A DNA stretch of 64,000 bases from Aulosira sp. ZfuVER01 (GCA_034530615.2 JAVRCV020000037.1:29942-93941), one strand, 5' to 3'; counted from the first letter of the stretch, positions 3,318-21,784 are shown. Program-made: numbers and translations. The notes: generated by a model from the letters alone, not told the origin.

Positions 3318-3443
3318 CCGTTAAAGCCAACACAAAGACTGAGTGAAGAAAAGTAGTAATACTACGGTAAACCCACAAAACGAGCAAATACAAGTATTCA
3401 GTCTTAACTATTGACACATTTTTGCAGAAGGTAACTTTTGTCT

Positions 3444-4625
3444 ATGAAAATTGCTGTAATCGGTGCCAAGGGTCTACCTCCTAAACAGGGTGGAATTGAA
3501 CATTATTGTGCGGAAATTTATCCCAGAATGGTTGCACAAGGACACTCTGTAGATTTATTCGCTCGTTCCTCCTATACTCAAGGTTCTTGGTTTGAGAGTT
3601 ATAAATTTAAGGGTATCCGAGTTATATCTCTACCTAGTGTCGATTTCAGAGGTATAGACGCTTTTTTTACCTCAGCACTGGGAGCAATAGCTGCTAGTGG
3701 CAAAAAATATGATATTGTTCATTTCCATGCTCTCGGTCCATCTATATTTACTTTTTTACCGAGAATTTTGAGATCTGGAAAAATTGTCGTTACCTGTCAT
3801 GGATTAGACTGGCAGCGTGCAAAGTGGGGTAGTTTTTCTACTCGCTTAATTCAAATGGGAGAGAAAACCGCAGTAAATTTTGCCCATGAAGTAGTTGTGG
3901 TATCAGAAGCACTGCAAACTTACTTTTTGCAGACATATGGCCGGGAGACAGTCTATATCCCTAATGCTCCTGCCACCTATGGTGAGTCAGACCCCAATTT
4001 TGCCTATGGTAAACAGTTAGGGCTTAAACAGGGACGTTACATTCTATTTTTGGGTAGATTGGTACCAGAGAAGCGTCCTGACTTGCTCGTTGATGCCTTC
4101 TGTGCCCTCAAATCATCTGGGTGGAAACTTGTCTTGGCTGGAGGTGTGAGTGATACTAAATCCTTTACCTCAAAACTATTAGAAAAGGTTGCAAATAATC
4201 GAAATATCGTATTTGTTGGTGAACTGAGGGGAACTCGTCTTTGGGAGATTGTTCGGGGAGCAGGATTATTTGTCCTTCCTTCTGATTTAGAAGGCTTACC
4301 TCTATCGATGCTAGAGGCTATGCAGGAAGGAATACCGATATTAGCAAGCAACATCCCGCCTCACCAGCAATTGATTAATAAGGAACGAGGTATGCTTTTT
4401 GAAGCAGGAAATTTGCCATCTTGCATTAATTCTTTAGACTGGGCAATTCATCATCCCCAACAACTAGCAGCAATGGCTCGAAATTCACGAAAGTATGTTC
4501 AGATGAATTATAACTGGGAGCAAATTACTGCTGACAACTTGAAACTGTATGAAGATATTTCTAATATTCATGATGACTTCAATAAAATCAAGACAAAAGC
4601 AGATTTATCGGTTATAAAAAGCTAG
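3444..4625 (+). CDS. Glycosyltransferase family 4
   Basis: MKIAVIGAKGLPPKQGGIE N-terminus, LGRLVPEK, EGLPLSMLEAM. ATG at 3444 (ORF track starts at 3438). Confidence 0.9.
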   Translation: MKIAVIGAKGLPPKQGGIEHYCAEIYPRMVAQGHSVDLFARSSYTQGSWFESYKFKGIRVISLPSVDFRGIDAFFTSALGAIAASGKKYDIVHFHALGPSIFTFLPRILRSGKIVVTCHGLDWQRAKWGSFSTRLIQMGEKTAVNFAHEVVVVSEALQTYFLQTYGRETVYIPNAPATYGESDPNFAYGKQLGLKQGRYILFLGRLVPEKRPDLLVDAFCALKSSGWKLVLAGGVSDTKSFTSKLLEKVANNRNIVFVGELRGTRLWEIVRGAGLFVLPSDLEGLPLSMLEAMQEGIPILASNIPPHQQLINKERGMLFEAGNLPSCINSLDWAIHHPQQLAAMARNSRKYVQMNYNWEQITADNLKLYEDISNIHDDFNKIKTKADLSVIKS

Positions 4626-4746
4626 AAAGCAATAATTATTTTATGGCTGAATATAATTTTTTTAATATTACAGTGAAGTTAGATTTAATTTAAGTTTTAT
4701 CAAAAAGTTAGACCTAATTTTCTGTGCTCAATTCTTTAGGATTTAC

Positions 4747-6960
4747 ATGAAAACTAAGGCTCGAACAGTATCACTAGATTCTTTGGAAATAGACTTACAA
4801 CAATACTGGCTGATTTTGAAACGTCGTTGGTTTCCTGCCATTAGTGTTTTCTCGTTCGTGCTAATTGCATCGATGTTGTTTGCTTCTTTGCAAAAACCAA
4901 TATACCGAGCACAGGGAAAACTTTTACTAAAAGTAGATAGAGTTGCTTCACTTACGGGTGTGGGTACTGACTTGGGGCAATTTTCACCTTTGACTTTGCA
5001 AAGTAGCCCAATGAAGACAGAATCAGAAGTGCTTCTATCAACTCCTTTAATAGAAAAAGTCATTGCTCAACTCCAGTTAAAGGATAAAAATGGTAATCTG
5101 CTGAAAGCAGAAGATCTACAAGGACGATTAGCTGTCAAACAAATTTCTGGAACTGATGTTTTAGAGCTTTCTTTTGACGAGAAGAACCCTCAAACTGCCG
5201 CAGCAGTAGTCAATAAACTGATGCAGGTATATATTAACAATAATATTTTGACCAGCCGAAAACAGGCGGCAGCAGCGCGGAAAGTAATTACCGAACAACT
5301 GCCTAAAAGTGAAACTACAATGCAGCAAGCAAATGTAGAGTTACGTAATTTCAAAGAGCGAAATGGCATTACCAATCTAGACGAAGAATCCAAAGCTCTT
5401 GTGGCAAATGCGTCAGAATTAGAAAAAGAAATTACGAAAGCCCAAACACAGCTTGACGATGTTAATTCTCGGTTAGCGTCCCTACGGAATAAAGTGGGCT
5501 TAAGCAGTGATGCCGCGATCGCACTCAGTTCTCTCAGTCAATCCCTTAGCGTGCAGCAAGCACTTAAAGAATATCAAGACATTCAGAGTCAGTTAGCAGG
5601 TGCGCGAGCTCTTTATCAAGAGCAGTCGCCTCCAGTTATCACTCTTAAAGAAAAAGAAACTGCACTTCGAGCTATTTTGCAGGAACGTACCAATGAAATT
5701 CTCGGTCGCTTTAATCTCTCAAATAGAAACTTACAGATCGGGACAATTGAACAACAACTTATTCAAAAATTTATCGATACCGAAGTAGAAAGATTAGGTT
5801 TAGCTAGTCAAGTCAAACGCCTCTCCAATACCAGAGAACTCTACCAAAAGCGTTCCAGACTTATACCTAGGCTAGAACAGGGGGAGCGAGAGTTACAGCA
5901 ACGCTTACAGGCAGCGCAATCGAGCTACGAAAACCTGCTGAAAAAACTTCAAGAAGTGGAAGTTGTAGAACAGCAGAATACAGGTAATGCAAGCATCGTT
6001 GAAATGGCTTCATCCCCAGATAGCCCTGTGCAAAAGCAAAAAATGCTGACACAGGTATTAGGTGGACTGCTGGCAATATTAGCAGCTCTCATCACCATCA
6101 TGGTGCTGGAGATGAGTGATAGATCTGTAAAAAGCGTTAAGGAAGCGCGGCAGTTATTTAATCATCCTTGGCTGGGGTCAATTCCGCAATTTGGCAAGTC
6201 TACATTACCTAACCGTAAAAATGCTGACTGGTCAACTCCTACGTTACCAGTACGAGATTATCCTCGCTCATCCGTTAGTTCTGCTTATCGTTTGTTACAA
6301 GCCAATCTGAAGTTCTTAGATGTAGAAAAAGAACTGAAAACCTTGGTGGTAACTAGTTCAGTACCTAAGGAAGGTAAGTCTACTATTTCAGCAAATCTAG
6401 CAGCAACTATGGCTCAACTTGGCCGTCGTGTTTTGCTGATTGATACCGATCTACACCATCCTCAACAACACCACATTTGGAACTTAACGAATGTGGTGGG
6501 ATTAAGCAATGTAATTGTCAAGCAGATTAATTTTGCTGCTGCTGTCAACAAAGTCATGGACAATTTGGATGTGTTGACCTCTGGTGTGATTCCTCCTAAT
6601 CCCTTAGCAATTTTAGATTCTAAACCGATGCAGGTCTTAGTTGCTTCTGCGGCCCAACAATATGATTTTGTCATTTTAGATGGATCGCCTTTAATAGTTG
6701 AGGCTGAAGCATTGACTTTAGGCAAGATGACTGATGGCATCTTGTTAGTGGTAAGGCCAGGAGTGCTGGATTCCACAAGTGCCAATACTGCCAAAGAATT
6801 GTTACACCAATCCGCACAAACCATTCTTGGGATAGTTGTGAATTGTGTTGCCTCGGAAACCGAATATAACCGCTTTGCCTATTACAAACAGGATCGGGCG
6901 GAAGTTATTAATCCTGCGACTTCGCCAGGATTAAGCAATGGCACAACAAGCATTCACTAA
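4747..6960 (+). CDS. wzc: Polysaccharide co-polymerase / BY-kinase (Wzc/GumC family)
   Basis: N-terminal TM, long coiled-coil, second TM, Walker A SSVPKEGKST, LLIDTD motif, C-terminal Tyr cluster (EYNRFAYY). Confidence 0.88.
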   Translation: MKTKARTVSLDSLEIDLQQYWLILKRRWFPAISVFSFVLIASMLFASLQKPIYRAQGKLLLKVDRVASLTGVGTDLGQFSPLTLQSSPMKTESEVLLSTPLIEKVIAQLQLKDKNGNLLKAEDLQGRLAVKQISGTDVLELSFDEKNPQTAAAVVNKLMQVYINNNILTSRKQAAAARKVITEQLPKSETTMQQANVELRNFKERNGITNLDEESKALVANASELEKEITKAQTQLDDVNSRLASLRNKVGLSSDAAIALSSLSQSLSVQQALKEYQDIQSQLAGARALYQEQSPPVITLKEKETALRAILQERTNEILGRFNLSNRNLQIGTIEQQLIQKFIDTEVERLGLASQVKRLSNTRELYQKRSRLIPRLEQGERELQQRLQAAQSSYENLLKKLQEVEVVEQQNTGNASIVEMASSPDSPVQKQKMLTQVLGGLLAILAALITIMVLEMSDRSVKSVKEARQLFNHPWLGSIPQFGKSTLPNRKNADWSTPTLPVRDYPRSSVSSAYRLLQANLKFLDVEKELKTLVVTSSVPKEGKSTISANLAATMAQLGRRVLLIDTDLHHPQQHHIWNLTNVVGLSNVIVKQINFAAAVNKVMDNLDVLTSGVIPPNPLAILDSKPMQVLVASAAQQYDFVILDGSPLIVEAEALTLGKMTDGILLVVRPGVLDSTSANTAKELLHQSAQTILGIVVNCVASETEYNRFAYYKQDRAEVINPATSPGLSNGTTSIH

Positions 6961-6966
6961 GAAATT

Positions 6967-8355
6967 ATGAACCTACGATCCCAAGTCCTGCGTGGAGGTG
7001 TCTACCTGGCTATTCGCCAAGGGATGGGCATGTTCATTAGTTTAGTTGGCGTGCTCTTTCTCACCCGCGCCATTGGACCAGAACAGTATGGTCTTTACAC
7101 TGCTGCATTTGGACTTTTTTATTATCTACAAAACATTAGCCAACTGGGCATTACTGTTTACTTGGTGCGTCGAGAAGGAGAAGACAAGGTCACAGTCTAC
7201 CATCAAGCGTTTACTCTGTTGCTGCTGGTTAGCCTGATTGGGGTTGTACTGAGTCAACTAGGGGTGCCATTGCTGGCAGGCTGGGTCAATTTAAAAGGCT
7301 TCCAACCGATTTTTCAGGTATTGTCTTTGAGTCTACCAGTTGTATTACTTAGCCAAGTGCCGATGGCAAGAATGGAGCGACAGCTAGACTACAAACAGGT
7401 CGCCTGGATTGAATTCGTAGGGCAGATTGCCTACTTCATAGTAGCATTACCAATCGCTTTTCAAGGAGGTGGTGCCTGGAGTCCAGTGGCAGGCTGGTGG
7501 GTACAACAACTGCATCTGTTAGTGCTTTTTTTCTGGGCTGCTAAGTACCAACCGCGCTTATGCTGGCAGCCAGATTTAGTCAAGCAAATGCTAGCTTACA
7601 GCGTTGGATACTCAGCCTCATTTTGGGTATGGCAACTACGCTCTTTGGTAAACCCCCTACTGGTAGGACGCCTGCTTGGTGCAGAAGCGGTAGCCTACAT
7701 AGCGCTTGCTAGTCGGATGGTGGAATTATTGGGATTCGTCAAGTCTGCTACATATCGCCTGTCGATCGCAACGCTGGCTCGTTTGCAGAGCGATCGCTAT
7801 CGTATGAGCCAGGCAATTACAGAAGGTATGGTACTTCAGGTGCTGGCATTAGGCCCATTTCTGGTGATTGTCAGTTGGTTAGGCCCTTGGTTTCTGCCCT
7901 TGCTATTTGGTGTCAAATGGTCGCCTGTGATGCATATCTATCCTTTCATTGCCTTTAGTCTACTAGCCAATGCTCTATTTAACTTGCATTCTTCTGCTCT
8001 TTACGCCCTACAACGTAACTGGGGAATCACACTATTTCACAGCATTCACATTGCCCTATTTTTTGCTGTCGCCCTACTACTAATTCCACGATTGGGATTG
8101 ATTGGTTATGGTTGGGCAGAGGTTGCCACAATCTTGAGTTATGGCGTTATTCATACTTATCTGGTACGTGATGTCAGCAGTCCTGACTACAGTTTTGCGG
8201 GCTTGTTAGCAGTTGCCTTTGGACTGGCGTTGTTCCCCTATCAATTAGGGTGGTGGGTTGTCATCGGAGTAGCGATCGCTTTGTTATTACCGAATACGCA
8301 GCACAAACTAATTGAACTCTGGAAAAACTTTAGGAGTGCAAGAAATGCCAGTTAA
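6967..8355 (+). CDS. wzx: Oligosaccharide flippase (Wzx)
   Basis: Polytopic membrane protein with the typical LTRAIGPEQYGLY N-terminal motif, located in an EPS cluster. Confidence 0.85.
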   Translation: MNLRSQVLRGGVYLAIRQGMGMFISLVGVLFLTRAIGPEQYGLYTAAFGLFYYLQNISQLGITVYLVRREGEDKVTVYHQAFTLLLLVSLIGVVLSQLGVPLLAGWVNLKGFQPIFQVLSLSLPVVLLSQVPMARMERQLDYKQVAWIEFVGQIAYFIVALPIAFQGGGAWSPVAGWWVQQLHLLVLFFWAAKYQPRLCWQPDLVKQMLAYSVGYSASFWVWQLRSLVNPLLVGRLLGAEAVAYIALASRMVELLGFVKSATYRLSIATLARLQSDRYRMSQAITEGMVLQVLALGPFLVIVSWLGPWFLPLLFGVKWSPVMHIYPFIAFSLLANALFNLHSSALYALQRNWGITLFHSIHIALFFAVALLLIPRLGLIGYGWAEVATILSYGVIHTYLVRDVSSPDYSFAGLLAVAFGLALFPYQLGWWVVIGVAIALLLPNTQHKLIELWKNFRSARNAS

Positions 8356-9292
8356 GACTTCGGATGCATTACCGCTAGTCAGTATCATAATCAACAACTA
8401 TAACTATGGGCAGTTTTTAGCAGATGCGATCGATAGCGCGATCGGGCAAACCTATCCCCATATTGAAGTTATTGTGGTTGATGATGGCTCGACCGATCGC
8501 TCACGGGAGGTAATTGCTAGTTACGGAGACAAAATTATTCCTGTATTCAAACAAAATGGAGGGCAAGCCTCAGCTTTCAATACAGGATTTGCTGCCAGCC
8601 ACGGAGACATTATTTGTTTCTTAGACGCCGATGATACTTACAAACCTGAAAAAGTATTTGAGGTCGTTAATATCTTGCAAAACTATCAAGAAAGCTGTTG
8701 GTGTTTTCATATGCTGCAATTTATTGATACAGATCTGAAAACACCCATAGACAGCCACTACGATCGCCAAGATACAGGTTTGGTGTATGACTGCGATTTG
8801 AAAAATGAGATACGTCAAGGAGGAATCAAGAAAAAATTGCCGTTCTCAATTCCTGCTACTTCCGGTCTTTGCTTTACTCGGTCTCTGATACAACAAATTC
8901 TGCCTATGCCAGAGGCAGACGGTATCGTACTTAACGATAGCTATTTACAGTTCACAGCTATAGCGCTAGCAAAGGGTGTAGCTATAGCTAAGAAACTTGC
9001 TTTTCAGCGGGTTCATAGTAACAATACATTTACCCACAAGGCAAATACACAATCAATCATTACTGTAAAAATTAATTGCCTGACAGCTTACTGGATTAGA
9101 AGAAAATTTCCTTTTTTATTTAAATTTACTAATAACTTTTTTGCCGTTGGGTTAAGCAATTACTGGCGTATAAAGTGCAGGGATAGCAGTACAAAAGAGA
9201 TTATAGACAAGTATTTGATGATTACTCCATTTACCAAAATAATATTGATTTATACTAAAGCAATTTACTACTGCTTTATCAGGAATTATTAA
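8345..9292 (+). CDS. Glycosyltransferase family 2
   Basis: VSIIINNYNY, VVDDGSTD, FLDADD (DxD). ATG 8345 overlaps the end of wzx. Confidence 0.9.
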   Translation: MPVKTSDALPLVSIIINNYNYGQFLADAIDSAIGQTYPHIEVIVVDDGSTDRSREVIASYGDKIIPVFKQNGGQASAFNTGFAASHGDIICFLDADDTYKPEKVFEVVNILQNYQESCWCFHMLQFIDTDLKTPIDSHYDRQDTGLVYDCDLKNEIRQGGIKKKLPFSIPATSGLCFTRSLIQQILPMPEADGIVLNDSYLQFTAIALAKGVAIAKKLAFQRVHSNNTFTHKANTQSIITVKINCLTAYWIRRKFPFLFKFTNNFFAVGLSNYWRIKCRDSSTKEIIDKYLMITPFTKIILIYTKAIYYCFIRNY

Positions 9293-9380
9293 AATCAATT
9301 ATCGGTAGAGCTATTAAGAAATCAGAATCCAGCAGTTGCAATCTAAACTTCCGCAAAATAGCGAAACAATAGGAATTTTT

Positions 9381-10487
9381 ATGAAACTAAAAAAAATTGT
9401 TGTTACAGGAGATGGGCTATTCTTAAGGCGCTATCGTCCCTTATTTGAAACCCTGTCATTACAATGTGAGCAGTTAGAATATTTATCTGGTGATGAGCCT
9501 TTCCGCCTTCCCGTATTGAATAAGGCTGCCAAGCTCTTAAATAAGCTGATTTATCTAATTTCCCCTGTTCTAGCAGGAAAACGTCAGAAAAATAAGCAGG
9601 CATTCATTAAAAAATCAAAGCGGCTTGAGCGCAGTATCGAGCAGTTAGATTACAAACCAGATTTCGTATTGCATATTTTTGGTATGTACTGTCCGTTTTG
9701 GGAAAAATTTGATATTCCTTACGGTATGTATCTGGACTACACAATGTCTTTAGTTAAGCACAATTGGTTGCCTTGGGCACCCTTTTCCAATTACCAAGAA
9801 TTTACTGCTTGGTTAGAGTGTGAGCGATTAGCTTATCAACGGGCATACCATCTGTTTACTATGAGTCACGTTGTTAAATCTTCGTTAATTACAGACTACG
9901 GTATTGAGCCTGAAAAAATTACTGTTGTTGGTTCTTTTGCCAATCGTCATACAGTGTATGAAGGAGAAAAACCATTTGGCAGTAAACAGATTTTATTTAA
10001 TGGTGCAGAGTTTGAACGCAAAGGTGGTGATATCGTTTTAGCTGCATTTAAACAAGTTAAAACTGTTTTACCCGAATCCAAGCTGGTAATTATTGGTAAG
10101 CAGCTGGGAATTCAACAGGAGGGTGTAGAAAATCCGGGACAAATTAGTTCTTTAGAAGAAATGCGTCACCTGTTTCTACAAACCGATCTAGTAGTTGCTC
10201 CAGGAAAATGTGACCCATTTCCATCCTTTCTCATCGAGGCGATGAATTATGGAGTTCCTTGTATAGTTTCTCCCAATGATGGGATGCCGGAAATTGTTGA
10301 TCCGGGTATTAGCGGCATCGTTGTCGATCCCCTCACACCAGAGTTGCTGGCTGAAAAAATCATTCATTTACTAAATGATATTTCAACGCTTACTGCGATG
10401 TCTCAAGCAGGGCGACAGAAAGTAAAAACTCAATTGAATTGTGAAAAAGTTGCTGCAAGTATCAAACAAGTTCTATTAAATAGCTAG
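9381..10487 (+). CDS. Glycosyltransferase family 4
   Basis: FERKGGD and DPFPSFLIEAMNYGVP. ATG at 9381. Confidence 0.85.
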   Translation: MKLKKIVVTGDGLFLRRYRPLFETLSLQCEQLEYLSGDEPFRLPVLNKAAKLLNKLIYLISPVLAGKRQKNKQAFIKKSKRLERSIEQLDYKPDFVLHIFGMYCPFWEKFDIPYGMYLDYTMSLVKHNWLPWAPFSNYQEFTAWLECERLAYQRAYHLFTMSHVVKSSLITDYGIEPEKITVVGSFANRHTVYEGEKPFGSKQILFNGAEFERKGGDIVLAAFKQVKTVLPESKLVIIGKQLGIQQEGVENPGQISSLEEMRHLFLQTDLVVAPGKCDPFPSFLIEAMNYGVPCIVSPNDGMPEIVDPGISGIVVDPLTPELLAEKIIHLLNDISTLTAMSQAGRQKVKTQLNCEKVAASIKQVLLNS

Positions 10488-10541
10488 ATATGTAAATTAA
10501 ACTTATGTTCAAAAAAATTGCTAATATCTACTATCTTTAAA

Positions 10542-11831
10542 ATGAGAAAAAAATTAGAAATATTAGAATATATATTTTTTATTGTTTCCATCCTCTATTA
10601 CACTGGAACGATTAACTTTTTAGGGGGAGTAACATCAGCAGACAACCCAGCACTTCAAGAATCAGGTGAGAGTTCTGCTATATTGAGCTTGATTCAGTAT
10701 GGAATACTTGCTATCACTCTTTTATTAGTAGTTATTCGGCGTAATCAGATTAGTTACTTTGTAAGCAAACGAAAATTTCTCTTAGTATTCACGGGACTCA
10801 TTCTTATTTCGTTCTTATGGTCTCCTGTCCCTGATTTAACTCTGCGGAGAGCACTGATATTTCTTGGGGTATCTTTGTTTGGATTAAGCATTTCTGCTCG
10901 ATACACAATCAAGGAACAGTTATATCTTTTCGCTTGGGCAATGGGGATTATTGTTGTTATTAATCTGTTGTTTACTCTGGCATTACCCTCAATAGGAATT
11001 GAAGGTGGAGAACACGCAGGGGCATGGAGAGGCGTTTATCCGCAAAAAAATGTATCTTCGCGAATGTTTGTGCTATCTTCTTTAATTCTTTTGCTGGCAA
11101 AGATTGGCACTCATCGCTATCGGTATATTTTAGCAGTGCTTTTAGGGCTTTCTGTAGTCTTAACTCTTCTATCAGCTTCTAAAGGTGCTCTTGTAATTCT
11201 ATTAGTGATGTTTGCGCTTGTGCCTTTATTTCAAGCTTTACAATTAAATAATACTTGGGTATTGCCATTATTAGTTTCTTTATTACTAATTGGGAGCAGT
11301 ATTGCTATTTTATTAATTAGTAACTCAGAGACAATTGTAAAGTTTTTGGGGCGGGATCTGACTTTAACAGGTAGAACTGGAATTTGGTCAGTAGTGATTA
11401 GTAAAATTGCTTTACATCCCTGGCTAGGATATGGCTATAAAGGTTTTTGGCTGGGTATGGAAGGGGATTCCGCAGATGTTTGGTATGAAACATTTTTTAT
11501 GGCACCAAATGCCCACAATGGCTGGCTAGATATTACGGTGCAATTAGGATTAGTTGGTCTTTTCTTTTTCCTATTGAGCTATATCAAGAATTGCTTGCGT
11601 GCGATCGCTTGGTTGCGCCTCAATCACACAGTTGAAGGGTTGCTACCTGTCTTATATCTAACATTTATTTTCTTGTACAACTTGGCAGAGACAACACTGC
11701 TAGACCCTGCCCAATTTATTTGGGTAATGTATACGTCGATTACAACCACTGTTTTGACTCAACCTATTGTAGTCAAAGATTTCAATTCCCCATTTAGAAA
11801 CAACACATTTAAGAGGCTAAAAAATGTTTAA
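10542..11831 (+). CDS. O-antigen ligase / Wzy polymerase family membrane protein
   Basis: Multi-TM with WRGVYPQKN, GRDLTLTGRTGIW, PWLGYGY and AHNGWLD motifs. Confidence 0.85.
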   Translation: MRKKLEILEYIFFIVSILYYTGTINFLGGVTSADNPALQESGESSAILSLIQYGILAITLLLVVIRRNQISYFVSKRKFLLVFTGLILISFLWSPVPDLTLRRALIFLGVSLFGLSISARYTIKEQLYLFAWAMGIIVVINLLFTLALPSIGIEGGEHAGAWRGVYPQKNVSSRMFVLSSLILLLAKIGTHRYRYILAVLLGLSVVLTLLSASKGALVILLVMFALVPLFQALQLNNTWVLPLLVSLLLIGSSIAILLISNSETIVKFLGRDLTLTGRTGIWSVVISKIALHPWLGYGYKGFWLGMEGDSADVWYETFFMAPNAHNGWLDITVQLGLVGLFFFLLSYIKNCLRAIAWLRLNHTVEGLLPVLYLTFIFLYNLAETTLLDPAQFIWVMYTSITTTVLTQPIVVKDFNSPFRNNTFKRLKNV

Positions 11832-12921
11832 GCGACTGGCTATTTTTGTCCCTACCCTTCATGGTGGTGGTGCTGAAAGGGCGATGCTGAATCTAGCATG
11901 TGGCTTTTCTCAACAGGGAATTCCAGTGGATCTTGTAATGTTGCGAGTTGAGGGGCCTTATTTGTCACAGTTGCCACCGGAAGTACGGGTAGTCAATTTG
12001 GGTGGAGGGAGGCTGTGGCAATGTTTTCCCGCTCTGGTTCGCTATTTGCTACGGGAACAACCACCAGTGATGCTTTCAACCTTGGATGATACTAATATTG
12101 CTGCACTATGGGCACGACGTTTAGCAGGAAATAAAACTCGCCTAGTAGTCAATGTCCAAAATACAATTTCACAGGATGCTAAAAATGCAACGCAATTGAA
12201 AACTCGTGTAATGCCACACTTTGTACGCAGGTTTTTCCCTTGGGCAGATGCAGTGGTTCCTGTTTCTTATGGTGTTGTTGAAGATTTGGTGCAGATTGGT
12301 GTCTCACAAAAACGCATCCAGGTAATTCCCAATCCTGTGATTTCCCCAACTGTATTTGACAAAGCACAAGAAGCGATCGCCCATCCCTGGTTTTCAGACG
12401 ATCAACCGCCTGTAATTTTGGGTGTTGGTCGCCTCAATCAACAAAAAGACTTTCCCACATTAATCAGAGCATTTGCTCAGTTACGTCAGCAGCGTCGTGT
12501 CAGATTGGTCATTCTGGGAGAGGGTGAAGAACGCTCAACTATAGAAGCTCTAATTAAAGAATTGCAGCTAGAGAATGATGTAGATTTACCCGGTTTTGTT
12601 GATAATCCCTATGCATATATGGCTCGCTCGGCAGTATTTGTACTTTCCTCTTTGTTTGAGGGTTTACCTAGCGTCTTGATTGAGGCAATGGCAGCAGGTG
12701 CGTCAGTGGTAGCAACCAATTGTCCAAGCGGACCACTGGAGATTTTGGAAAACGGACGATACGGCAGATTGGTGCCGATTGGTAATTTTGAAGCAATGGC
12801 AGCAGCGATCGCCGCAACCTTGGATAACCCTCTATCTCTTGATGTATTAAGACAGCGATCGCAAGAGTTCTCATTGGAGCGATCTTTAGCTGAATATGCC
12901 AAAGTCTTACAGATTGGCTAA
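11824..12921 (+). CDS. Glycosyltransferase family 4
   Basis: LHGGGAER, VGRLNQQKDF, FEGLPSVLIEAMAAG. Confidence 0.9.
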   Translation: MFKRLAIFVPTLHGGGAERAMLNLACGFSQQGIPVDLVMLRVEGPYLSQLPPEVRVVNLGGGRLWQCFPALVRYLLREQPPVMLSTLDDTNIAALWARRLAGNKTRLVVNVQNTISQDAKNATQLKTRVMPHFVRRFFPWADAVVPVSYGVVEDLVQIGVSQKRIQVIPNPVISPTVFDKAQEAIAHPWFSDDQPPVILGVGRLNQQKDFPTLIRAFAQLRQQRRVRLVILGEGEERSTIEALIKELQLENDVDLPGFVDNPYAYMARSAVFVLSSLFEGLPSVLIEAMAAGASVVATNCPSGPLEILENGRYGRLVPIGNFEAMAAAIAATLDNPLSLDVLRQRSQEFSLERSLAEYAKVLQIG

Positions 12922-13128
12922 TTTCTGATTATAAAGCAATGGGCACTGTAATGATATGGTGTAATTCATTTTTTCCACTACTACTTGTTTTATAAACACA
13001 AGTTTAAACTTTTTAACAAGATTCAAATTCTAGAATTTATCTATTTTTGATAGGAGAAAATTAAGTAATTCAAAAATAGAAAAATCATTTATCTAACAAG
13101 CAACCTGATTATTTTGAAACAAATCATC

Positions 13129-14400
13129 ATGCAACACTTAAATTATTCAGTGGCTTGGAAAAACCGCTTTTCATCTCTCTTACTAATAGTATTTATTGTA
13201 TTAGTCACCCTATGGAGAATTAGGTATAAATTTCCGCAATTGAGGGATTTTTACGAAGCTTATTATCCAGCAGGCCGTTTAATCATCGATCGTCCAGAGC
13301 AAATTTATGAATTTATAAAATCCTCTGATGGCATCGTCCAACCTGTAATTTATGGATTTGTTAATCTCCCAATTATCGCTTATTTACTAACCCCATTTTC
13401 AGTAGTCGATCAGCAAACATCTGGAATTTTGTTTACATTATTTGGTGTGGTTGCCATTGTATATTCTGGATGGTTATTGATTGAATCTGCTAATTTAAAA
13501 GGTTGGAAAAAGAACATCTTCATTGCTCTTTTGGCTATTAATGCCCCAATTTTTAACAGTATCTGGCTGGGTAACTCTACTCACATAATATTTGTCTTGT
13601 TGATTGCTGCATTTATCTCTTTCCGTTCCAAGCAAGATTTATGGAGTGGATTCTTTTTAGCGATTGCCGGGTTAATCAAAATTCCGCTGTTATTTCTGAT
13701 TTTATATTTCTGCTTAAAACGACGCTGGCAAGTAGTAGCTGGTTTTGTGGGAACGATAATTGCAGTTGTCAGCCTATCAATTCTAGTTTGCGGACTTGAT
13801 TTGAACGTGACTTGGTTCCAGAAGTGTATTCTTTCATTTACAGGACAGGCTGTTGCTGGTGATACGGTTCAGTCGGTTGATGCTTTCCTTATTCGACTGC
13901 TGACCAATGCCCCTATTGACAGCTACGATTATGTAGACGGTGGCTTACTATTTAAGTTGCTAAGATATGGGATATTCTCCTTGTTGATGGGTGGTACTCT
14001 ACTAGCCTGCTGGCGCTCTCGTCACATTACCTCAACACAAGTAGAAAATCTAGAGTTTTCCAGCTTTCTCTGTCTAACCTTACTGATTAGTCCCATATCC
14101 TGGACTCACTATTACTTATTCTTGCTGCTGCCAATAGCACTTTACTTAGGCGGGCAGTTAAGTATTCCCTCTGGCTGGCGCTGGTCGGCATTGATGACCT
14201 TGAGCATTTTGCTTGTCATCGCACCCAATGTCAGAAATATTCCCACAGCTCATCCAGTCATAGTTGCGTTAACTCGTCACATTCTTGTGTCTCATTACTT
14301 CTGGGGTGGTGTCTTACTCTTAGGAGTTCTACTCACAAGCTTATTCAGATATAGAGAGATCGCTAAGACTCGTGAGCCTAGCTTACTACCCGATGTTTGA
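13129..14400 (+). CDS. GT87/DUF2029 GT-C glycosyltransferase (polyprenyl-phosphate-sugar dependent), copy 1
   Basis: DFYEAYYPAG after the first TM, GFVNLP, LAIAGLIKIP, ISWTHYY; roughly 10 TMs. Confidence 0.8.
   Translation: MQHLNYSVAWKNRFSSLLLIVFIVLVTLWRIRYKFPQLRDFYEAYYPAGRLIIDRPEQIYEFIKSSDGIVQPVIYGFVNLPIIAYLLTPFSVVDQQTSGILFTLFGVVAIVYSGWLLIESANLKGWKKNIFIALLAINAPIFNSIWLGNSTHIIFVLLIAAFISFRSKQDLWSGFFLAIAGLIKIPLLFLILYFCLKRRWQVVAGFVGTIIAVVSLSILVCGLDLNVTWFQKCILSFTGQAVAGDTVQSVDAFLIRLLTNAPIDSYDYVDGGLLFKLLRYGIFSLLMGGTLLACWRSRHITSTQVENLEFSSFLCLTLLISPISWTHYYLFLLLPIALYLGGQLSIPSGWRWSALMTLSILLVIAPNVRNIPTAHPVIVALTRHILVSHYFWGGVLLLGVLLTSLFRYREIAKTREPSLLPDV
13948..14342 (+). repeat. About 395-bp direct repeat, copy A (copy B at 15406-15800)
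   Basis: Aligned by eye at a constant offset of 1458 with about 8 mismatches; 13990-14246 appears identical. Confidence 0.9.
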
Positions 14401-14547
14401 TACTCAATCTTCCTACTTCTCTAGACATTCAATGCATAGTGCCTGGATAAGTCATGAGACAACTACAGAGGGTTGAGGAAGAGTTACTGCGTTGTAGTTT
14501 ATCTAAGCCATTGCGATCGCCTTTAGACTCAATCGTAAGGAGATAAT

Positions 14548-15852
14548 GTGAATAAAAATGCCGTGAGCTTGTTAGTTGCCAATCTTGCTAATTTAACCCA
14601 GCTAGGTAAAGGTTTCTCAAAGATTGCTAGTGTTTGGCCAACAAGATTTATCACTCTATTAACTATCTTGTTTATTGCCGTAGTAGCCTATTGGAGAATT
14701 CAACACCAATTCCCAGAATTATTAGATTTTTACAATGCTTATTATCCGGCAGGGCGCTTAATTCTGGAACACCCAGAGCAGCTTTATGGGTCTGCGAAGC
14801 TATCAATTTATGGCTTTGTCAATCTTCCCATCCTTGCCTACTTGTTTACACCATTCTCTCTACTTGATGAGTACCAATCCAGCATATTGTTCACACTATT
14901 GGGTGTATTTTCTATCTTTGCTATTGGATTAGTTTTGATTAAATTGGCTGATCTACAAAGATGGAAAAAATTGTGCTTTATTGCGCTATTAATCATCAGT
15001 TCTCCTCTGTACAATAGTATTTGGTACGGTAACTCTACCCATTTTGTATTCCTCCTGGTGCTGGGTTCATTCTTGAGCTTTCACCGACAGAAAGATATTT
15101 GGAGTGGTGCTTTATTAGCAATCGCTGGGTTAATTAAAATTCCGCTGTTGTTTCCAATAATTTACTTCTTACTAAAAAGGCGTTGGCAAATAGTCATTAG
15201 CTTTTTCGCAACATTATTTGCCATAGTTGGATTGTCAATCCTAGTGTGTGGATTGAGTTTAAATCTAGTCTGGTTCAAAGAGTGTATTCTGGCGTTTTCT
15301 GGTCAAGTATTTGCTGCTTATAATGTCCAATCTGTTGATGCCTTTTTAATTCGGCTGCTGACTGATACACCCATTGATGCGGCACAATATGTAGAAGGCA
15401 ATTGGCTATTTAAGCTACTAAGATATGGGATATTCTCCTTGCTGATTGGTGGTACTCTACTAGCCTGCTGGCGCTCTCGTCACATTACCTCAACACAAGT
15501 AGAAAATCTAGAGTTTTCCAGCTTTCTCTGTCTAACCTTACTGATTAGTCCCATATCCTGGACTCACTATTACTTATTCTTGCTGCTGCCAATAGCACTT
15601 TACTTAGGCGGGCAGTTAAGTATTCCCTCTGGCTGGCGCTGGTCGGCATTGATGACCTTGAGCATTTTGCTTGTCATCGCACCCAATGTCAGAAATATTC
15701 CCACGGCTCATCCAGTCATAGTTGCGTTAACTCGTCACATTCTCGTGTCTCATTACTTCTGGGGTGGTGTCTTACTCTTAGGAGTTTTGCTCACAAGCTT
15801 GCTCGGGCAAACAAGGATGAAGCAATCTGCGGTATCCGACATCTCTAAATAA
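14548..15852 (+). CDS. GT87/DUF2029 GT-C glycosyltransferase, copy 2
   Basis: DFYNAYYPAG, GFVNLP, ISWTHYY; paralogue of the preceding gene; GTG start preceded by AAGGAG. Confidence 0.8.
   Translation: MNKNAVSLLVANLANLTQLGKGFSKIASVWPTRFITLLTILFIAVVAYWRIQHQFPELLDFYNAYYPAGRLILEHPEQLYGSAKLSIYGFVNLPILAYLFTPFSLLDEYQSSILFTLLGVFSIFAIGLVLIKLADLQRWKKLCFIALLIISSPLYNSIWYGNSTHFVFLLVLGSFLSFHRQKDIWSGALLAIAGLIKIPLLFPIIYFLLKRRWQIVISFFATLFAIVGLSILVCGLSLNLVWFKECILAFSGQVFAAYNVQSVDAFLIRLLTDTPIDAAQYVEGNWLFKLLRYGIFSLLIGGTLLACWRSRHITSTQVENLEFSSFLCLTLLISPISWTHYYLFLLLPIALYLGGQLSIPSGWRWSALMTLSILLVIAPNVRNIPTAHPVIVALTRHILVSHYFWGGVLLLGVLLTSLLGQTRMKQSAVSDISK
15406..15800 (+). repeat. About 395-bp direct repeat, copy B
   Basis: Near-identical to 13948-14342. 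Confidence 0.9.
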
Positions 15853-15948
15853 GACAGGGATATTGACACACTCCATTTTCCAGCTTGGTTCAATTGTGTC
15901 ATCAATGATGCGATCGCTCAATTCTACTACCATAATTAATCTTCAATT

Positions 15949-16947
15949 ATGAGATTCTTCAAAATTGATAAAGCCTTAACACGCAATAATTTTTCTCTTG
16001 AACAAACGGTAGAAACACCGCTTTCCTGGAGAACTTACCTACAATTGCTCCGTCCTAGACAGTGGACAAAGAACCTGATTGTTTTTGCTGCTCCTCTATT
16101 TGCATTTAGTATTAATCTGCAAACTTTGTTAGGGGCACTATTAGCATTTGTGTTATTTTGCTGTACCTCTAGCAGCTTCTACATTATTAATGACGCGATC
16201 GATGCAGAGGCTGATAGACAGCATCCTGTGAAGTGTAAGCGTCCTATTGCTTCTGGTTTGATTCAGGTTCCAGTGGCGATGGCGATCGCCACTGTTTTGC
16301 TAGTTAGCGCACTATTCATAGGTTGGCAGAGAAATCTTGGTTTAGGAGTGGCACTAACTAGCTATGCAGCACTACAAGTTGCTTATAATCTGCGGTTGAA
16401 GCATACCGTGATTTTAGATGTTGTGGCGATCGCCATCGGCTTTGTTCTAAGAGCTTATGGTGGAGCCGCTGCTACGCATATTTTGTTATCACCCTGGTTT
16501 CTGATCTGTACCGCTATGTTGGCCCTGTTTTTAGGTATCGAGAAGCGGAAAGCAGAACTGCGTTTGGTTGAACTGAAGGGTGGAAAGCGGCGTCGTGTCC
16601 TGTGGCGGTATTCTCTGCCACTACTAAGCCGTATGGAGAGTACAGTAACTACAGGCACTTTAATGACCTATGCCTTATGGAGTTCTGGCCCTCAAGTTCA
16701 AGGGGCTTCAACGCCTTGGATGATGTTGACTCTACCCTTTGTGCTGTACGGGATGTTTCGTTACCAATTTCTCAGTGATCCACAAGAAATTGCTCGGCGG
16801 ACAGATTTACAGGAAGAAGGTGGCGGGCGAACTGAGCGCCCTGAGGAAGTTTTATTAACAGACCGTCCCTTATTGATGACCGTTCTAGCTTGGGTAGGAA
16901 CGACAGTTATTGTGCTTTTCCTAAAAAGCAAAGGAATTATTCATTAA
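15949..16947 (+). CDS. Decaprenyl/polyprenyl-phosphate phosphoribosyltransferase (UbiA superfamily, DPPR-synthase type)
   Basis: LLRPRQWTKNLIVFAAP, YIINDAIDAEADRQHPVKCKRPIASG (NDxxDxxxD) and LFLGIEKRKAEL resemble the mycobacterial Rv3806c-like subfamily. Confidence 0.85.
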   Translation: MRFFKIDKALTRNNFSLEQTVETPLSWRTYLQLLRPRQWTKNLIVFAAPLFAFSINLQTLLGALLAFVLFCCTSSSFYIINDAIDAEADRQHPVKCKRPIASGLIQVPVAMAIATVLLVSALFIGWQRNLGLGVALTSYAALQVAYNLRLKHTVILDVVAIAIGFVLRAYGGAAATHILLSPWFLICTAMLALFLGIEKRKAELRLVELKGGKRRRVLWRYSLPLLSRMESTVTTGTLMTYALWSSGPQVQGASTPWMMLTLPFVLYGMFRYQFLSDPQEIARRTDLQEEGGGRTERPEEVLLTDRPLLMTVLAWVGTTVIVLFLKSKGIIH

Positions 16948-17011
16948 GTTATTCGTATCAGCAAGCCCTTGAAGCTTGTGGTTGACTGTTGTGAAGCCAG
17001 CATCTGTGTCT

Positions 17012-17599
17012 ATGATTAGAAAGCGCTTTTTTCTCATACCTCTTGTTCAGTTTTTGAAGCGTTTATTTGTGCTACGCTCTAGTTCTATTTCGTACTGTTT
17101 CCCAAAGCGATCGCACAATCTCGCTAACGTCGACTTAGCACTGTTAATCCACAGTGGAATTCACGGGGTGATTCTTGATTTGGATAATACTATTGTTTCA
17201 GAAGACGATCGCTATCTTTCACCAGGAGCCGAGGAGTGGATTCAGCAGGCGAAGGAAAGGGGATTGAAGTTTTTTATCCTTTCTAATGGAAAACGTCGTT
17301 ACCGTGTAGAGTTCTGGTCTCATCGCTTAGGAATTCCGACTATTAGTCCAGCCAGAAAACCTTTTCCGCCTTCATTCAAAATAGCACTTACTAAAATGCA
17401 GCTCTCTCCTACTCAGGTTGTAGTCATTGGGGATAGCCGTCACACTGATATGCTGGGAGCTTGGTTGGTAGGTTGCCCAAGTATTCAAGTCGCAACCCTG
17501 CCGCATCCTTTTCGTTGGTGGGAGAAGTTGCTAGGTAAGCGAGTTCAAATTCCCTACCCCAATCACTTAGAGCTATGGGATTGCGATCCTTATTGCTGA
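17012..17599 (+). CDS. YqeG-family HAD IIIA phosphatase
   Basis: Motif I DLDNT, motif II LSN, motif III ARKP, motif IV IGDSRHTD. Start is uncertain (16976 or 17012). Confidence 0.85.
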   Translation: MIRKRFFLIPLVQFLKRLFVLRSSSISYCFPKRSHNLANVDLALLIHSGIHGVILDLDNTIVSEDDRYLSPGAEEWIQQAKERGLKFFILSNGKRRYRVEFWSHRLGIPTISPARKPFPPSFKIALTKMQLSPTQVVVIGDSRHTDMLGAWLVGCPSIQVATLPHPFRWWEKLLGKRVQIPYPNHLELWDCDPYC

Positions 17600-17674
17600 G
17601 AAGTCATTTAGTTATTGCTTGTCCTGCAATAACTGATGTATTACTTTAATTGCTCCACTTAACTGGCTACAACA

Positions 17675-18019
17675 ATGCTTTCTCAATTTGCATTCATCAT
17701 TTTAATTTTGGTCACAGTAGGACTCAATACAATAGCACAAATCTTACTGAAGCTTGGCTCTGGACAAAATCCACTCAACTTATTTATTGTATGTGGTTTA
17801 TTAGCTTATGGTTTTAGTACCATTTTTTATCTCTTGGTTTTAGGCAAGTTCAATCTTTCTGTGGCGTATCCAATAGTAATTGGTTTGACAATTATTGCAA
17901 CCACATTCGCTGGAGCAATTTTCTTAAGAGAAAAGGTAGCTATGAGTCATTGGCTGGGAATTGGTTTAATGCTAAGTGGAATTTCAGCTATTGCTTTGAC
18001 TAAAGTATATACAAGGTAA
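17675..18019 (+). CDS. SMR/DMT-family 4-TM protein (ArnE/ArnF-like, putative lipid-sugar flippase)
   Basis: 114 aa, four hydrophobic helices, AQILLKLG, NLSVAYP and FLREKV motifs. Confidence 0.75.
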   Translation: MLSQFAFIILILVTVGLNTIAQILLKLGSGQNPLNLFIVCGLLAYGFSTIFYLLVLGKFNLSVAYPIVIGLTIIATTFAGAIFLREKVAMSHWLGIGLMLSGISAIALTKVYTR

Positions 18020-18231
18020 TAGTCTTACTATTATGTAGTCAAAATATTACTATACAAAAAGCTTTTTTGCTTCTGAGAATGTGAAATTTTTTATGCTGTT
18101 TTATCAAACTATGGCAGACTTGCATCTAATTAAAAGTACCGTAATCAGTAAGTAGTATTGGCTCGAACTACTTATCTGTTCTTTTCGCAATAAGTAGAGA
18201 TTTTATCAACAGAGTTGCCAAATATATCAAC

Positions 18232-18263
18232 TATATCACAGCTAGAGAGCTAGCTGTGATATA
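18232..18263. repeat. Perfect 14-bp inverted repeat
   Basis: TATATCACAGCTAG-agag-CTAGCTGTGATATA. Confidence 0.8.
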
Positions 18264-18449
18264 TGGCTGCTCGCTCAAATGCAAAATCTGTGGTGAATTT
18301 CGTGATTGCATAGAGTGCAGTATCCAGAAGGCATTCTTCACGTGATTCACAATAAATTTATGAAAAATTGAAATTAATTTTGTATATGTGTATTGCTTAT
18401 TTTTATATAAAAATAGTAGTTATTAGTTATTAGATTTTTAGCAAGTTAG

Positions 18450-19637: not shown

Positions 19638-19704
19638 CCTTGAGTGTATAGATAGTTGTGATTAATACGGAGTGTTTCTGAAGAATTTCGCAACATCACC
19701 CTAT

Positions 19705-20490: not shown

Positions 20491-20515
20491 AAGCAAGTGA
20501 GGAACTAGAGATAGC

Positions 20516-21484: not shown

Positions 21485-21784
21485 TATTCAATTGTAGATT
21501 GAGTAACATAGTACCAACATAGAGAAAGCGCCCAGAACTTCATCTCAAGCGCTTTTACTAATTGAATATTGAAGCTAAATCATTTTTCTGGCAAGTGTGG
21601 AGTTTTTCAGTGGCAAGGACAACCTGTTGCCAGTTTATTCAAAAATTCCCCGAAATCTTGTTTAGCTCAGAGCTAGGCAAATTGCGATCGCATAACTTGC
21701 GATAAATGCGAAAAATATGGCTATTTAGTTACCAGAATATGCTTTCATGTAGAGTTAAAACCTATTGACTTACCAGGAGTTGAT

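Follow-up and report, generated by a model that had tools for sequence, protein, structure and literature searches.

A candidate lipid-linked ribofuranosylation block beside a Wzx/Wzy polysaccharide cluster in the cyanobacterium Aulosira sp. ZfuVER01

Five consecutive, co-oriented ORFs on the + strand (13114-18019) lie directly after a Wzx/Wzy/Wzc polysaccharide cluster of Aulosira sp. ZfuVER01, within the window analysed here (the whole stretch of 64,000 nucleotides, JAVRCV020000037.1:29942-93941 of GCA_034530615.2). The ORF coordinates and family matches bear out the initial annotation, which had placed five co-oriented genes right behind the Wzx/Wzy cluster, and its family calls (two GT87 proteins, a phosphoribosyltransferase, a HAD and an SMR protein) all pass Pfam/NCBIfam cut-offs in profile searches. 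The features are the following:

2094..12921, + strand: Wzx/Wzy-dependent polysaccharide cluster, predicted source of the acceptor (Pfam and NCBIfam matches)
13114..14400, + strand: GT87a, GT-C glycosyltransferase, 428 aa from TTG 13114, with an alternative ATG at 13129
13930..14229, + strand: gene-conversion tract in the 3' parts of GT87a and GT87b, shared with 15388-15687 (300-nt direct repeat, 96% identical)
14548..15852, + strand: GT87b, GT-C glycosyltransferase, 434 aa
15949..16947, + strand: UbiA-superfamily predicted polyprenyl-phosphate 5-phosphoribosyltransferase (PPPRS/DPPRS type), 332 aa
16976..17599, + strand: YqeG-family HAD-IIIA phosphatase, 207 aa from TTG, likely start ATG 17012 (195 aa)
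17675..18019, + strand: SMR-fold four-helix membrane protein, predicted flippase, 114 aa

The polysaccharide cluster has the gene order GT4, GT4, Wzc, Wzx, GT2, GT4, Wzy, GT4 and ends 192 bp before GT87a, all genes being co-oriented; the HAD and SMR genes are spaced by 75 bp. No epimerase appears within or beside the five-gene block among the Pfam/NCBIfam profile matches. The block had earlier been taken to start at 13129, which is the alternative ATG of GT87a, while the ORF listed above begins at the TTG at 13114.

The UbiA protein scores 255.1 bits against the NCBIfam equivalog NF008978 (decaprenyl-phosphate phosphoribosyltransferase, cut-off 207), and a genome-wide search with this model gives a single match above cut-off, at 253.8 bits. 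It aligns end to end with M. tuberculosis Rv3806c (8j8j; phmmer E of 2.9e-43, residues 31-319), and in this alignment 10 of the 11 PRPP/Mg contacts listed for Rv3806c by Gao et al. (PMC10994848) are identical (R35, K41, Y78, N81, D85, K95, R98, Q143, Y146 and K151), the sole exception being F165 in place of Rv3806c Y157, a Y to F variant that the same paper describes in some mycobacteria. The Mg/pyrophosphate motif NDxxDxxxD and the K/R cluster are kept, with Rv3806c N73, D77, R22, K87, R90, K143 and Y138 corresponding to N81, D85, R35, K95, R98, K151 and Y146. Also identical are the phosphoribose-specific residues K28, Y70 and Q135 of Rv3806c (here K41, Y78 and Q143), which are described as non-conserved among other UbiA enzymes (PMC10994848); Y157, replaced by F165 here, is a further phosphoribose-specific contact. 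The equivalog score and the PRPP contacts make it likely that the protein is of the DPPRS/PPPRS (Rv3806c) type, with the corresponding activity predicted.

The HAD protein matches TIGR01668 (YqeG HAD-IIIA) with 164.2 bits (cut-off 89.1) and PF09419 (PGP_phosphatase) with 28.5 bits (cut-off 20.4), and its four HAD motifs are intact: DLDNT (residues 68-72), SNG, KP and GDSRHTD (pattern GDSxHTD). It is 56-63% identical to the HADs that accompany UbiA and SMR genes in other cyanobacterial trios, and 27% identical to the second YqeG copy of its own genome. A HAD gene directly follows UbiA in 12 of 18 related loci in one set and 9 of 20 in another. One locus (L024) carries a PF12710 HAD in place of the YqeG type, and in the protein P0054 a PF12710 HAD is fused to the N-terminus of a UbiA part 72% identical to that of the block, the same architecture as the characterised ORF15 of Citrobacter youngae; the HAD of the block is of the YqeG/HAD-IIIA subfamily and not of this fused type. 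We predict that it acts as a polyprenyl-P-ribose-5-P 5-phosphatase.

The SMR protein passes PF00893 (31.4 bits, cut-off 23.7) and falls below the cut-offs for ArnE (NF011625, 43 vs. 92) and ArnF (28.2 vs. 99), so that the generic SMR Pfam family is the only model passed. Four segments stand out in its hydropathy profile, and two of these overlap. The protein is predicted to be a flippase for the lipid-linked sugar, an activity which, according to the text of PMC11127046, has not been directly demonstrated for SMR-type proteins even in model systems.

The UbiA-HAD-SMR trio recurs in 20 of 38 related cyanobacterial loci (11/18 and 9/20), an arrangement that is not due to chance. Its GT-C partner varies, being usually of the PMT_2 type and GT87 in the Aulosira block. 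Conservation thus applies to the trio, in most cases accompanied by a PMT_2-type GT-C, and not to the five genes as a unit. In Nostoc the trio lies outside any polysaccharide cluster, and this location, together with the usual PMT_2 partner, means that the acceptor may not be an exopolysaccharide. The Aulosira genome lacks an orthologue of the PMT_2 GT-C found after the trio in Nostoc (best match 33% over 150 aa), and a further GT-C of the window, the PMT_2 protein encoded at 61430-63304, is unrelated to that partner. In one genome (G164) the module includes a second prs copy besides the one encoded elsewhere, which would speak for PRPP supply to the module.

Both GT87 proteins are well above the PF09594 cut-off of 25 (81.7 bits for GT87a and 93.1 for GT87b), and they are 72% identical to one another. 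The identity is concentrated at the C-terminus, where residues are the same from about residue 283 of GT87a onward; the tree distance between the two is 0.022 for the C-terminal part vs. 0.77 for the N-terminal part. In an alignment of 45 sequences of the subfamily, GT87a retains all 26 invariant columns, among them the first-loop Asp within the RDFYEAYYPAGR motif, and D60 of GT87b is likewise invariant. An AlphaFold2 model of GT87b (pLDDT 89.8, pTM 0.86) confirms the GT-C fold at the level of prediction; among solved structures it is matched best by PimE (9dm5; Foldseek E of 5.5e-7, TM 0.63/0.70), and it also resembles other GT-C enzymes that use polyprenyl/dolichyl-P-sugars. Searching PDB sequences with the GT87 proteins by phmmer returned nothing at E ≤ 0.01. 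An assignment of the pair as PimE orthologues was rejected, with NF009915 scores of 33.1 and 35.8 bits vs. a cut-off of 413.

We consider it reasonably probable, on the families and their context, that the UbiA, HAD, SMR and two GT87 proteins together make up a cyanobacterial counterpart of the three-component system that adds pentofuranose side groups outside the cytoplasm. At the cytoplasmic face, the UbiA enzyme would move ribose-5-phosphate from PRPP onto polyprenyl phosphate, and the HAD would then take off the 5-phosphate, leaving polyprenyl-P-ribofuranose. Flipping of this lipid-linked sugar to the periplasmic face would fall to the SMR protein, which probably works as a homodimer. There the two GT87 enzymes would use polyprenyl-P-ribofuranose as donor and attach ribofuranose to a glycan, the most probable acceptor being the polysaccharide of the adjacent Wzx/Wzy cluster. 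The order of steps that had been put forward for this locus (PRPP plus polyprenyl-P, 5-dephosphorylation, flipping, GT-C transfer) is thus plausible and supported by family and context evidence, from which we infer the transferred sugar, the acceptor and every enzyme activity in the block.

It is also important to consider whether the GT87 pair draws on the product of the trio. The trio could make polyprenyl-P-ribose for a GT-C encoded elsewhere while the pair decorates the polysaccharide from another lipid donor, such as polyprenyl-P-mannose or -glucose, an arrangement that we regard as unlikely. PimE, the closest solved structure and a GT87 enzyme, uses polyprenyl-P-mannose and not a pentose (PDB entry titles), the usual neighbour of the trio is a PMT_2 GT-C, and further GT-C genes exist in this genome, namely the PMT_2 gene of the window and a third GT87 on contig 51. 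Moreover, 41 of the 48 GT87-bearing genomes sampled carry no UbiA gene, which means that membership in Pfam GT87 alone does not imply a pentose donor. However, the other GT87 genes fall outside the subfamily of the window, with identities of about 21% or no match by tblastn, and this subfamily is confined to 3 of 401 sampled genomes (G000, G306 and G080), all three with the trio, though these are few and, being kin, not independent. GT87b-like genes adjoin UbiA at one locus (L009) and lie within 2 kb of the trio at another (L029); in G080 a GT87b-like pair is found about 88 kb away from the trio, and a more distant GT87 sits within a UbiA-DprE1-SDR operon (L025). The PMT_2 protein of the window, as noted, is not a relative of the Nostoc partner. 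GtrB/ArnC-type polyprenyl-P-sugar synthases carry C-terminal membrane helices, and in the local GT2 no segment reaches the hydrophobicity threshold of the hydropathy scan.

The identity of the sugar depends on whether the lipid-linked ribose is epimerized. A PF04030 search of the whole genome (99.99% complete) gave no match. Since PF04030 recovered only three of five cyanobacterial genomes in which tblastn detects a DprE1-like gene, the genome was also searched with a cyanobacterial DprE1-like protein (from L017), which gave weak FAD-domain matches only (24-27% identity, best E of 2e-6). With both searches negative, the earlier observation that the block lacks an epimerase stands and extends to DprE1 in the genome at large; in a genome without a DprE1-type epimerase, the predicted sugar remains ribose, and no arabinose is expected. 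A DprE1-like gene is also missing from four of the five other trio genomes. The pathway could still run as proposed with an unlinked enzyme converting the lipid-ribose to xylo- or arabinofuranose, or to a derivative, before transfer. In C. youngae it is ORF13, a GalE-like SDR, that turns the donor into xylofuranose, and the GT-C there accepts both sugars (PMC11127046); a GalE-like SDR epimerase of the kind that serves xylofuranose in C. youngae O2 could be encoded elsewhere in the Aulosira genome. SDR epimerases are abundant in genomes of this kind, and SDRs are too many for a family-level search to single out a DprE2 reductase. At other cyanobacterial loci (L025, L017), UbiA is accompanied by DprE1-like, SDR or aminotransferase genes. 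Those loci, however, encode the converting enzymes beside UbiA (cyanobacterial DprE1-like genes, where present, adjoin UbiA, as at 6 of 20 related loci and at L017), whereas the block and its flanks are free of epimerase genes, which together with the two DprE1 searches makes conversion before transfer a rather improbable outcome. That the UbiA-like protein is instead one of the common prenyltransferases acting on aromatic compounds or lipids (of the quinone, chlorophyll, haem O or ether-lipid type), in a block unrelated to pentose transfer, is very improbable: its Pfam match is to the generic UbiA family, and some JGI records call its relatives 4-hydroxybenzoate polyprenyltransferase, but it retains the phosphoribose-specific residues of Rv3806c, scores at most 51 bits with other UbiA-type NCBIfam models (far under their cut-offs) and has as neighbours a phosphatase, GT-C enzymes and a small protein resembling a flippase, with no quinone or pigment genes.

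The preferred reading, transfer of ribofuranose by the GT87 pair, can be set against known systems. A lipid-donor route had been thought to differ from any characterised mechanism, a view that does not hold, as extracytoplasmic ribofuranosylation has been shown biochemically and genetically in C. youngae by Kelly et al. (PNAS 2024, PMC11127046), where the route consists of a polyprenyl-P-ribose synthase combined with a HAD phosphatase, followed by a flippase and a GT-C enzyme (ORF15 PPPRS-PRP, ORF14 MATE and ORF12 GT136 in O1/O2). Because the route was demonstrated in enterobacteria in 2024, the Aulosira block would add a variant to a known mechanism rather than introduce another one. The two share a UbiA-type phosphoribosyltransferase, a HAD, a small-transporter candidate flippase and one or more GT-Cs, their siting with a Wzx/Wzy-type glycan cluster and, for the O1 system that adds Ribf, the absence of an epimerase. 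They differ in the free-standing YqeG-type HAD-IIIA phosphatase of the block, in its two GT87 paralogues vs. GT136 (a family founded by Kelly et al. and set apart from GT87 here by Pfam naming) and in its cyanobacterial host. The SI of the paper lists candidate systems with SMR transporters, a separate phosphatase and several GT-Cs, while the terms "Cyanobacter", "Nostoc" and "GT87" do not occur in its main text or SI text, figures aside. As judged from the genes, the Aulosira block would represent this route in a cyanobacterium, with a YqeG-type HAD that stands free, an SMR protein and GT87 enzymes in a pair.

The mycobacterial decaprenyl-P-arabinose pathway (Rv3806c, Rv3807c, DprE1/DprE2, Rv3789 and GT-C arabinosyltransferases) begins with a homologue of the UbiA protein and likewise proceeds from dephosphorylation through flipping to transfer by GT-C enzymes. 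Unlike that pathway, the block is set in a genome without DprE1, has a HAD as its predicted phosphatase where Rv3807c, according to PMC11127046, bears no relation to HAD PRPs, and is predicted to decorate side chains rather than build a cell-wall polymer. PimE (9dm5, 9dm7) shares with the pair the Pfam GT87 family, the GT-C fold and, in the first loop, which follows helix 1, an invariant Asp, but the structure-based identity is 19-20%, and the predicted donor here is a pentofuranose, not mannose. The ArnE/ArnF undecaprenyl-P-Ara4N flippase similarly has the SMR fold, is small with four helices and is encoded alongside a pathway for a lipid-linked pentose; it is a heterodimer, whereas the block has one SMR gene, scoring under both family cut-offs. 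Among cyanobacterial DPA-like operons, L025 has a UbiA protein of the same family (67% identity) and a GT87 gene; operons of this type also encode DprE1-like and SDR proteins, together with a PF12710 HAD joined to a membrane domain of the MprF type, none of which is present in the block.

Ribofuranose pendant groups, given in the initial annotation for the glycan of Nostoc commune, find second-hand corroboration in PMC5635763. The block is a candidate genetic basis for the ribofuranose side groups of Nostoc-type glycans.

The five consecutive + strand genes that follow the Wzx/Wzy polysaccharide cluster are best described by a predicted polyprenyl-phosphate-ribofuranose donor pathway that would feed two periplasmic transferases of the GT87 family (GT87a and GT87b), which in turn would decorate the polysaccharide of the neighboring cluster. 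On balance we consider this whole chain, from donor pathway through the GT87 pair to the neighboring polysaccharide, to be the most likely mechanism, with confidence that differs from one part to the next.

Genes of the window that enter the argument, with profile scores and model cut-offs in bits.
2094-12921, + strand, eight Wzx/Wzy polysaccharide genes in the order GT4, GT4, Wzc, Wzx, GT2, GT4, Wzy, GT4
13114-14400, + strand, GT87a, PF09594 81.7 (cut-off 25); the in-frame ATG at 13129 is the start used in the initial annotation
14548-15852, + strand, GT87b, PF09594 93.1 (cut-off 25)
15949-16947, + strand, UbiA-family protein, NF008978 equivalog 255.1 (cut-off 207)
16976-17599, + strand, HAD, TIGR01668 (YqeG HAD-IIIA) 164.2 (cut-off 89.1)
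17675-18019, + strand, SMR membrane protein of 114 aa, PF00893 31.4 (cut-off 23.7)
61430-63304, PMT_2-type GT-C protein of 624 aa

These Pfam and NCBIfam scores bear out the family first assigned to each of the five genes. The best NCBIfam match of the SMR protein is ArnE, at 43 bits and under that model's cut-off of 92. GT87a begins after a gap of 192 bp from the polysaccharide cluster, whose Wzc, Wzx and Wzy are, by profile matches, a Wzc-type tyrosine autokinase with a chain-length domain, a flippase and a Wzy-type polymerase. Past the module and a 430-bp gap, the stretch 18450-20490 encodes a co-oriented ATP-grasp protein of 395 aa and then a protein of 272 aa, which has a single hydrophobic segment at its N-terminal end and matches no Pfam or NCBIfam model; neither gene adjoins the UbiA, HAD and SMR genes in the other genomes compared. 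Phycobilisome genes of the apcE/apcA/apcB type and an ATP synthase operon also lie in the window, and xisH (28205-28654) and two Uma2-family putative endonuclease genes (27280-27972 and 52553-53128) are scattered through it. A promoter and terminator scan of 12700-20600 stayed at chance level (20 promoter-like sites with 19.6 expected, 8 terminator-like sites with 6.6 expected). The run-level search listed no RNA runs containing the stretch, and among DNA runs it gave only three root-metagenome runs, all from the same study, and a soil run that contains a small share of the stretch.

Confidence is high for the first enzyme of the chain, the UbiA-family protein as a predicted polyprenyl-phosphate phosphoribosyltransferase. 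Its residues 31-319 align with the solved Mycobacterium tuberculosis enzyme Rv3806c (8j8j) at E 2.9e-43, and of the PRPP and Mg contacts given by Gao et al. (PMC10994848; R22, K28, Y70, N73, D77, K87, R90, Q135, Y138, K143 and Y157) ten recur unchanged in the window protein (R35, K41, Y78, N81, D85, K95, R98, Q143, Y146 and K151), while Y157 aligns with F165, a replacement that the same paper reports in some mycobacteria. Since the phosphoribose contacts are described there as not conserved among other UbiA enzymes, their retention argues against a quinone or chlorophyll prenyltransferase, the alternative raised in the initial annotation; the remaining UbiA-type NCBIfam models also speak against it, reaching at most 51 bits, far under their cut-offs. 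A profile search of the organism's own genome found a single gene of the NF008978 type.

For the next two steps, with the HAD as predicted phosphatase of the lipid-linked phosphoribose and the SMR protein as predicted flippase, our confidence is moderate. All four catalytic HAD motifs are present (DLDNT, SNG, KP and GDSRHTD). A different contig of the genome carries one more YqeG-family gene (188 bits), whose product is only 27% identical to the window HAD, as against 56-63% for the HADs encoded after UbiA in other cyanobacterial loci, so that, judged by sequence identity, the module HAD is a distinct and conserved paralogue. The locus L024 of genome G164 has no YqeG-type gene between UbiA and SMR and has a PF12710 HAD within the module instead, and the metagenomic protein P0054 (72% identity in the UbiA part) carries a PF12710 HAD as an N-terminal fusion, the same architecture as the characterized ORF15 of Citrobacter youngae; these two cases tie a HAD to this UbiA irrespective of HAD subfamily. 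The module HAD also scores above the Pfam PGP_phosphatase cut-off (28.5 vs. 20.4). Members of that family remove a phosphate from a lipid-phosphate-linked head group, a likeness that we take as an analogy only.

The initial annotation had put forward a lipid-donor ribofuranose route as a new mechanism, which does not hold, since an extracytoplasmic route of this kind has already been shown in C. youngae (Kelly et al., PNAS 2024, PMC11127046); the window locus is a variant of it. As described in that paper, lipid-phosphate-ribofuranose is made from PRPP by a UbiA-type synthase to which a HAD phosphatase is fused, the flippase is predicted to be a MATE protein, a GT-C enzyme that founds GT136 adds alpha-Ribf to the polymerized O antigen in the periplasm, and optional epimerases lead to xylo- or arabinofuranose. 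The window locus differs in its phylum, in its free-standing YqeG-type HAD in place of the fused phosphatase, in its SMR-fold protein in place of MATE, and in its paired GT87 enzymes. Among the further candidate systems in the SI are some that use SMR transporters, some whose phosphatase is separate and some that have several GT-Cs; a term search of the text and SI text of PMC11127046 found no occurrence of cyanobacter, Nostoc or GT87. Its Fig. S11 legend lists nosturonic acid among the abbreviations, so a glycan with this acid may be drawn in that figure. Pendant groups of ribofuranose, mentioned in the initial annotation, and of nosturonic acid on the Nostoc commune glycan are confirmed second-hand by a passage in PMC5635763, and our literature search found no paper assigning cyanobacterial genes to ribofuranose side groups.

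It is also necessary to consider which part of the locus is conserved. Among 18 related loci, most of them from Nostoc and others from Scytonema, Coleofasciculaceae, Alkalinema and Prochloraceae, tblastn found UbiA-HAD-SMR in that order in 11 and UbiA-HAD in one, the other six having UbiA alone, a partial match or a contig that is too short. Of 401 genomes sampled from the phylum, 52 contain the UbiA family at E <= 1e-30, among them 7 of the 45 from the window's taxonomic family; it is absent at this threshold from G180, the sole same-genus genome in the sample. A tblastn comparison of 20 UbiA loci from this sample gave the UbiA-HAD-SMR set (the trio) in nine, UbiA-SMR with another HAD type in one, a DprE1-like gene adjoining UbiA in six, and, in four, a distant UbiA at 29-33% identity next to an SMR of another kind. 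By these gene-order counts the conserved unit is the trio and not the five-gene block that the initial annotation had singled out; what recurs of that block is the trio. The usual GT-C neighbor of the trio is PMT_2-type (L005, L007, L013, L024, L028, L030, L031, L033 and L034). A prs (PRPP synthetase) gene adjoins UbiA in several Nostoc loci, and as this is the sole copy in G378 and G152 the adjacency may be positional; the G164 module holds a second prs copy besides one elsewhere in the genome, within the variant arrangement UbiA, SMR, PMT_2 GT-C, PF12710 HAD and second prs paralogue (L024:9460-14753). Separately, a DPPRS-like UbiA gene that scores under the equivalog cut-off (E 1e-41 to 1e-59) is present in 24 small genomes (1.7-2.5 Mb) of family f34 in the phylum sample.

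Pfam GT87 membership alone does not imply use of the trio's donor: 48 of the 401 genomes have a GT87 gene, and by list comparison 41 of these have no UbiA gene. These other GT87 genes form a separate subfamily (identity to the window pair of about 21%, or no match by tblastn), and a search with GT87b found relatives in three of the 401 genomes (G000, G306 and G080), all carrying the trio. The GT87b-like gene of G306 (L029) lies 1.6 kb past the SMR gene, and G080 has a GT87b-like pair on the trio's contig, about 88 kb away from the trio. In a Coleofasciculaceae MAG (L009), two GT87 genes and then a PMT_2 gene come directly after UbiA within a Wzc/GT4/Bac_transf cluster, and in G194 (L025) a more distant GT87 belongs to an operon that also holds UbiA, a DprE1-like gene, SDR and HAD-MprF. 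Four UbiA/GT87 match pairs from the protein database report equal longest contigs (4614, 16140, 94947 and 4655 bp), which is suggestive only. The PMT_2 protein that accompanies the trio in Nostoc has no orthologue in the own genome (best match 33% over 150 aa). The window's PMT_2 protein shows no significant similarity to it and was for this reason set aside as a candidate for the trio's usual partner.

A phmmer search of PDB sequences with GT87b returned nothing at E <= 0.01. An AlphaFold2 model built from 45 subfamily sequences (pLDDT 89.8, pTM 0.86) has PimE (9dm5, TM 0.63/0.70) as its best fold match, followed by GPI mannosyltransferase I, ALG6 and ArnT, all of which use lipid-phosphate-linked sugars. 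The loop following the first helix contains D60, a residue that is invariant across the subfamily and present in both paralogues. AftC is presumably a GT87 member as well; a literature check found no statement of this. Two further candidates were set aside, namely a 440-aa protein encoded in L029 between the SMR and GT87 genes as a GT87 (profile-comparison probability 0.3) and the local GT2 as a GtrB-like polyprenyl-phosphate-hexose synthase (no hydrophobic segments in a simple hydropathy scan). The window GT87 genes are, from their sequences, an old pair, in which a near-identical C-terminal third (300 nt at 96%, 13930-14229 vs. 15388-15687; tree distance 0.022) set against a diverged N-terminal part (0.77) points to recent gene conversion between the tandem paralogues. 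In the N-terminal tree P0122 and P0124 cluster with GT87b, and P0126 and P0127 with GT87a; P0124 and P0126 report an equal longest contig (2475205), so they are probably neighbors.

Our confidence is lower that the sugar is ribose and that the acceptor is the neighboring polysaccharide. The absence of an epimerase proposed initially agrees with the searches for DprE1: the own genome (99.99% complete) has no match to PF04030, a weak detector that found only three of five cyanobacterial genomes with a tblastn-found DprE1-like gene, and a search therefore added, for which the DprE1-like protein of L017 was the query, reached no more than 24-27% identity over the FAD-binding domain (best E 2e-6). 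DprE1 was likewise not found in four of five other trio genomes, the fifth, G080, having a true DprE1 homologue beside a second UbiA gene on another contig. An unlinked SDR may convert the lipid-linked ribose to another pentose.

Two loci of other composition were observed. L025:1014-11027 is a complete arabinose-type operon of UbiA, a DprE1-like gene, SDR, GT87, a PF12710 HAD in fusion with an MprF-type LPG_synthase_TM domain, a 544-aa protein of no named family and a second FAD_binding_4 protein. L017:1320-9952, from a Prochloraceae MAG, has UbiA followed by a flavin amine oxidase, a class III aminotransferase, a methyltransferase, SMR and the DprE1-like oxidase, together with a 611-aa protein without Pfam match; it would fit a candidate route to a lipid-linked amino- or methyl-pentofuranose donor, of which the literature examined on such routes gave no description.

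Compared with contig C147 of G180 over window positions 2000-21900, the polysaccharide cluster and the module are missing from the syntenic place; similarity covers argS, a histidine kinase, tmk and holB (81-92% DNA identity) and ends at holB, the G180 contig itself ending 2.5 kb past this limit. Given this lack of synteny, the 2-20.5 kb segment fits a variable surface-glycan region.

A wider proposal, which we hold to be possible but rather doubtful, is that the trio is the machine for the ribofuranose pendants of Nostoc-type glycans and acts through interchangeable GT-Cs, supplying polyprenyl-phosphate-ribose to GT87 pairs or PMT_2-type enzymes, and that its HAD reveals the first substrate class for bacterial YqeG/GEP4 HADs. 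If true, that class would be a phosphomonoester on a lipid-phosphate-linked head group, in parallel with the phosphatidylglycerophosphate phosphatase of mitochondria. The evidence suggests that the 2024 enterobacterial paradigm reaches into cyanobacteria, with other phosphatase and GT-C families, and the locus would define substrates for a GT87 subfamily and a YqeG paralogue. Ribofuranose side groups are, according to PMC5635763, a described feature of desiccation-protective Nostoc glycans; the donor-supply trio occurs in many Nostocales, and this locus with its relatives offers a testable gene candidate for those side groups.
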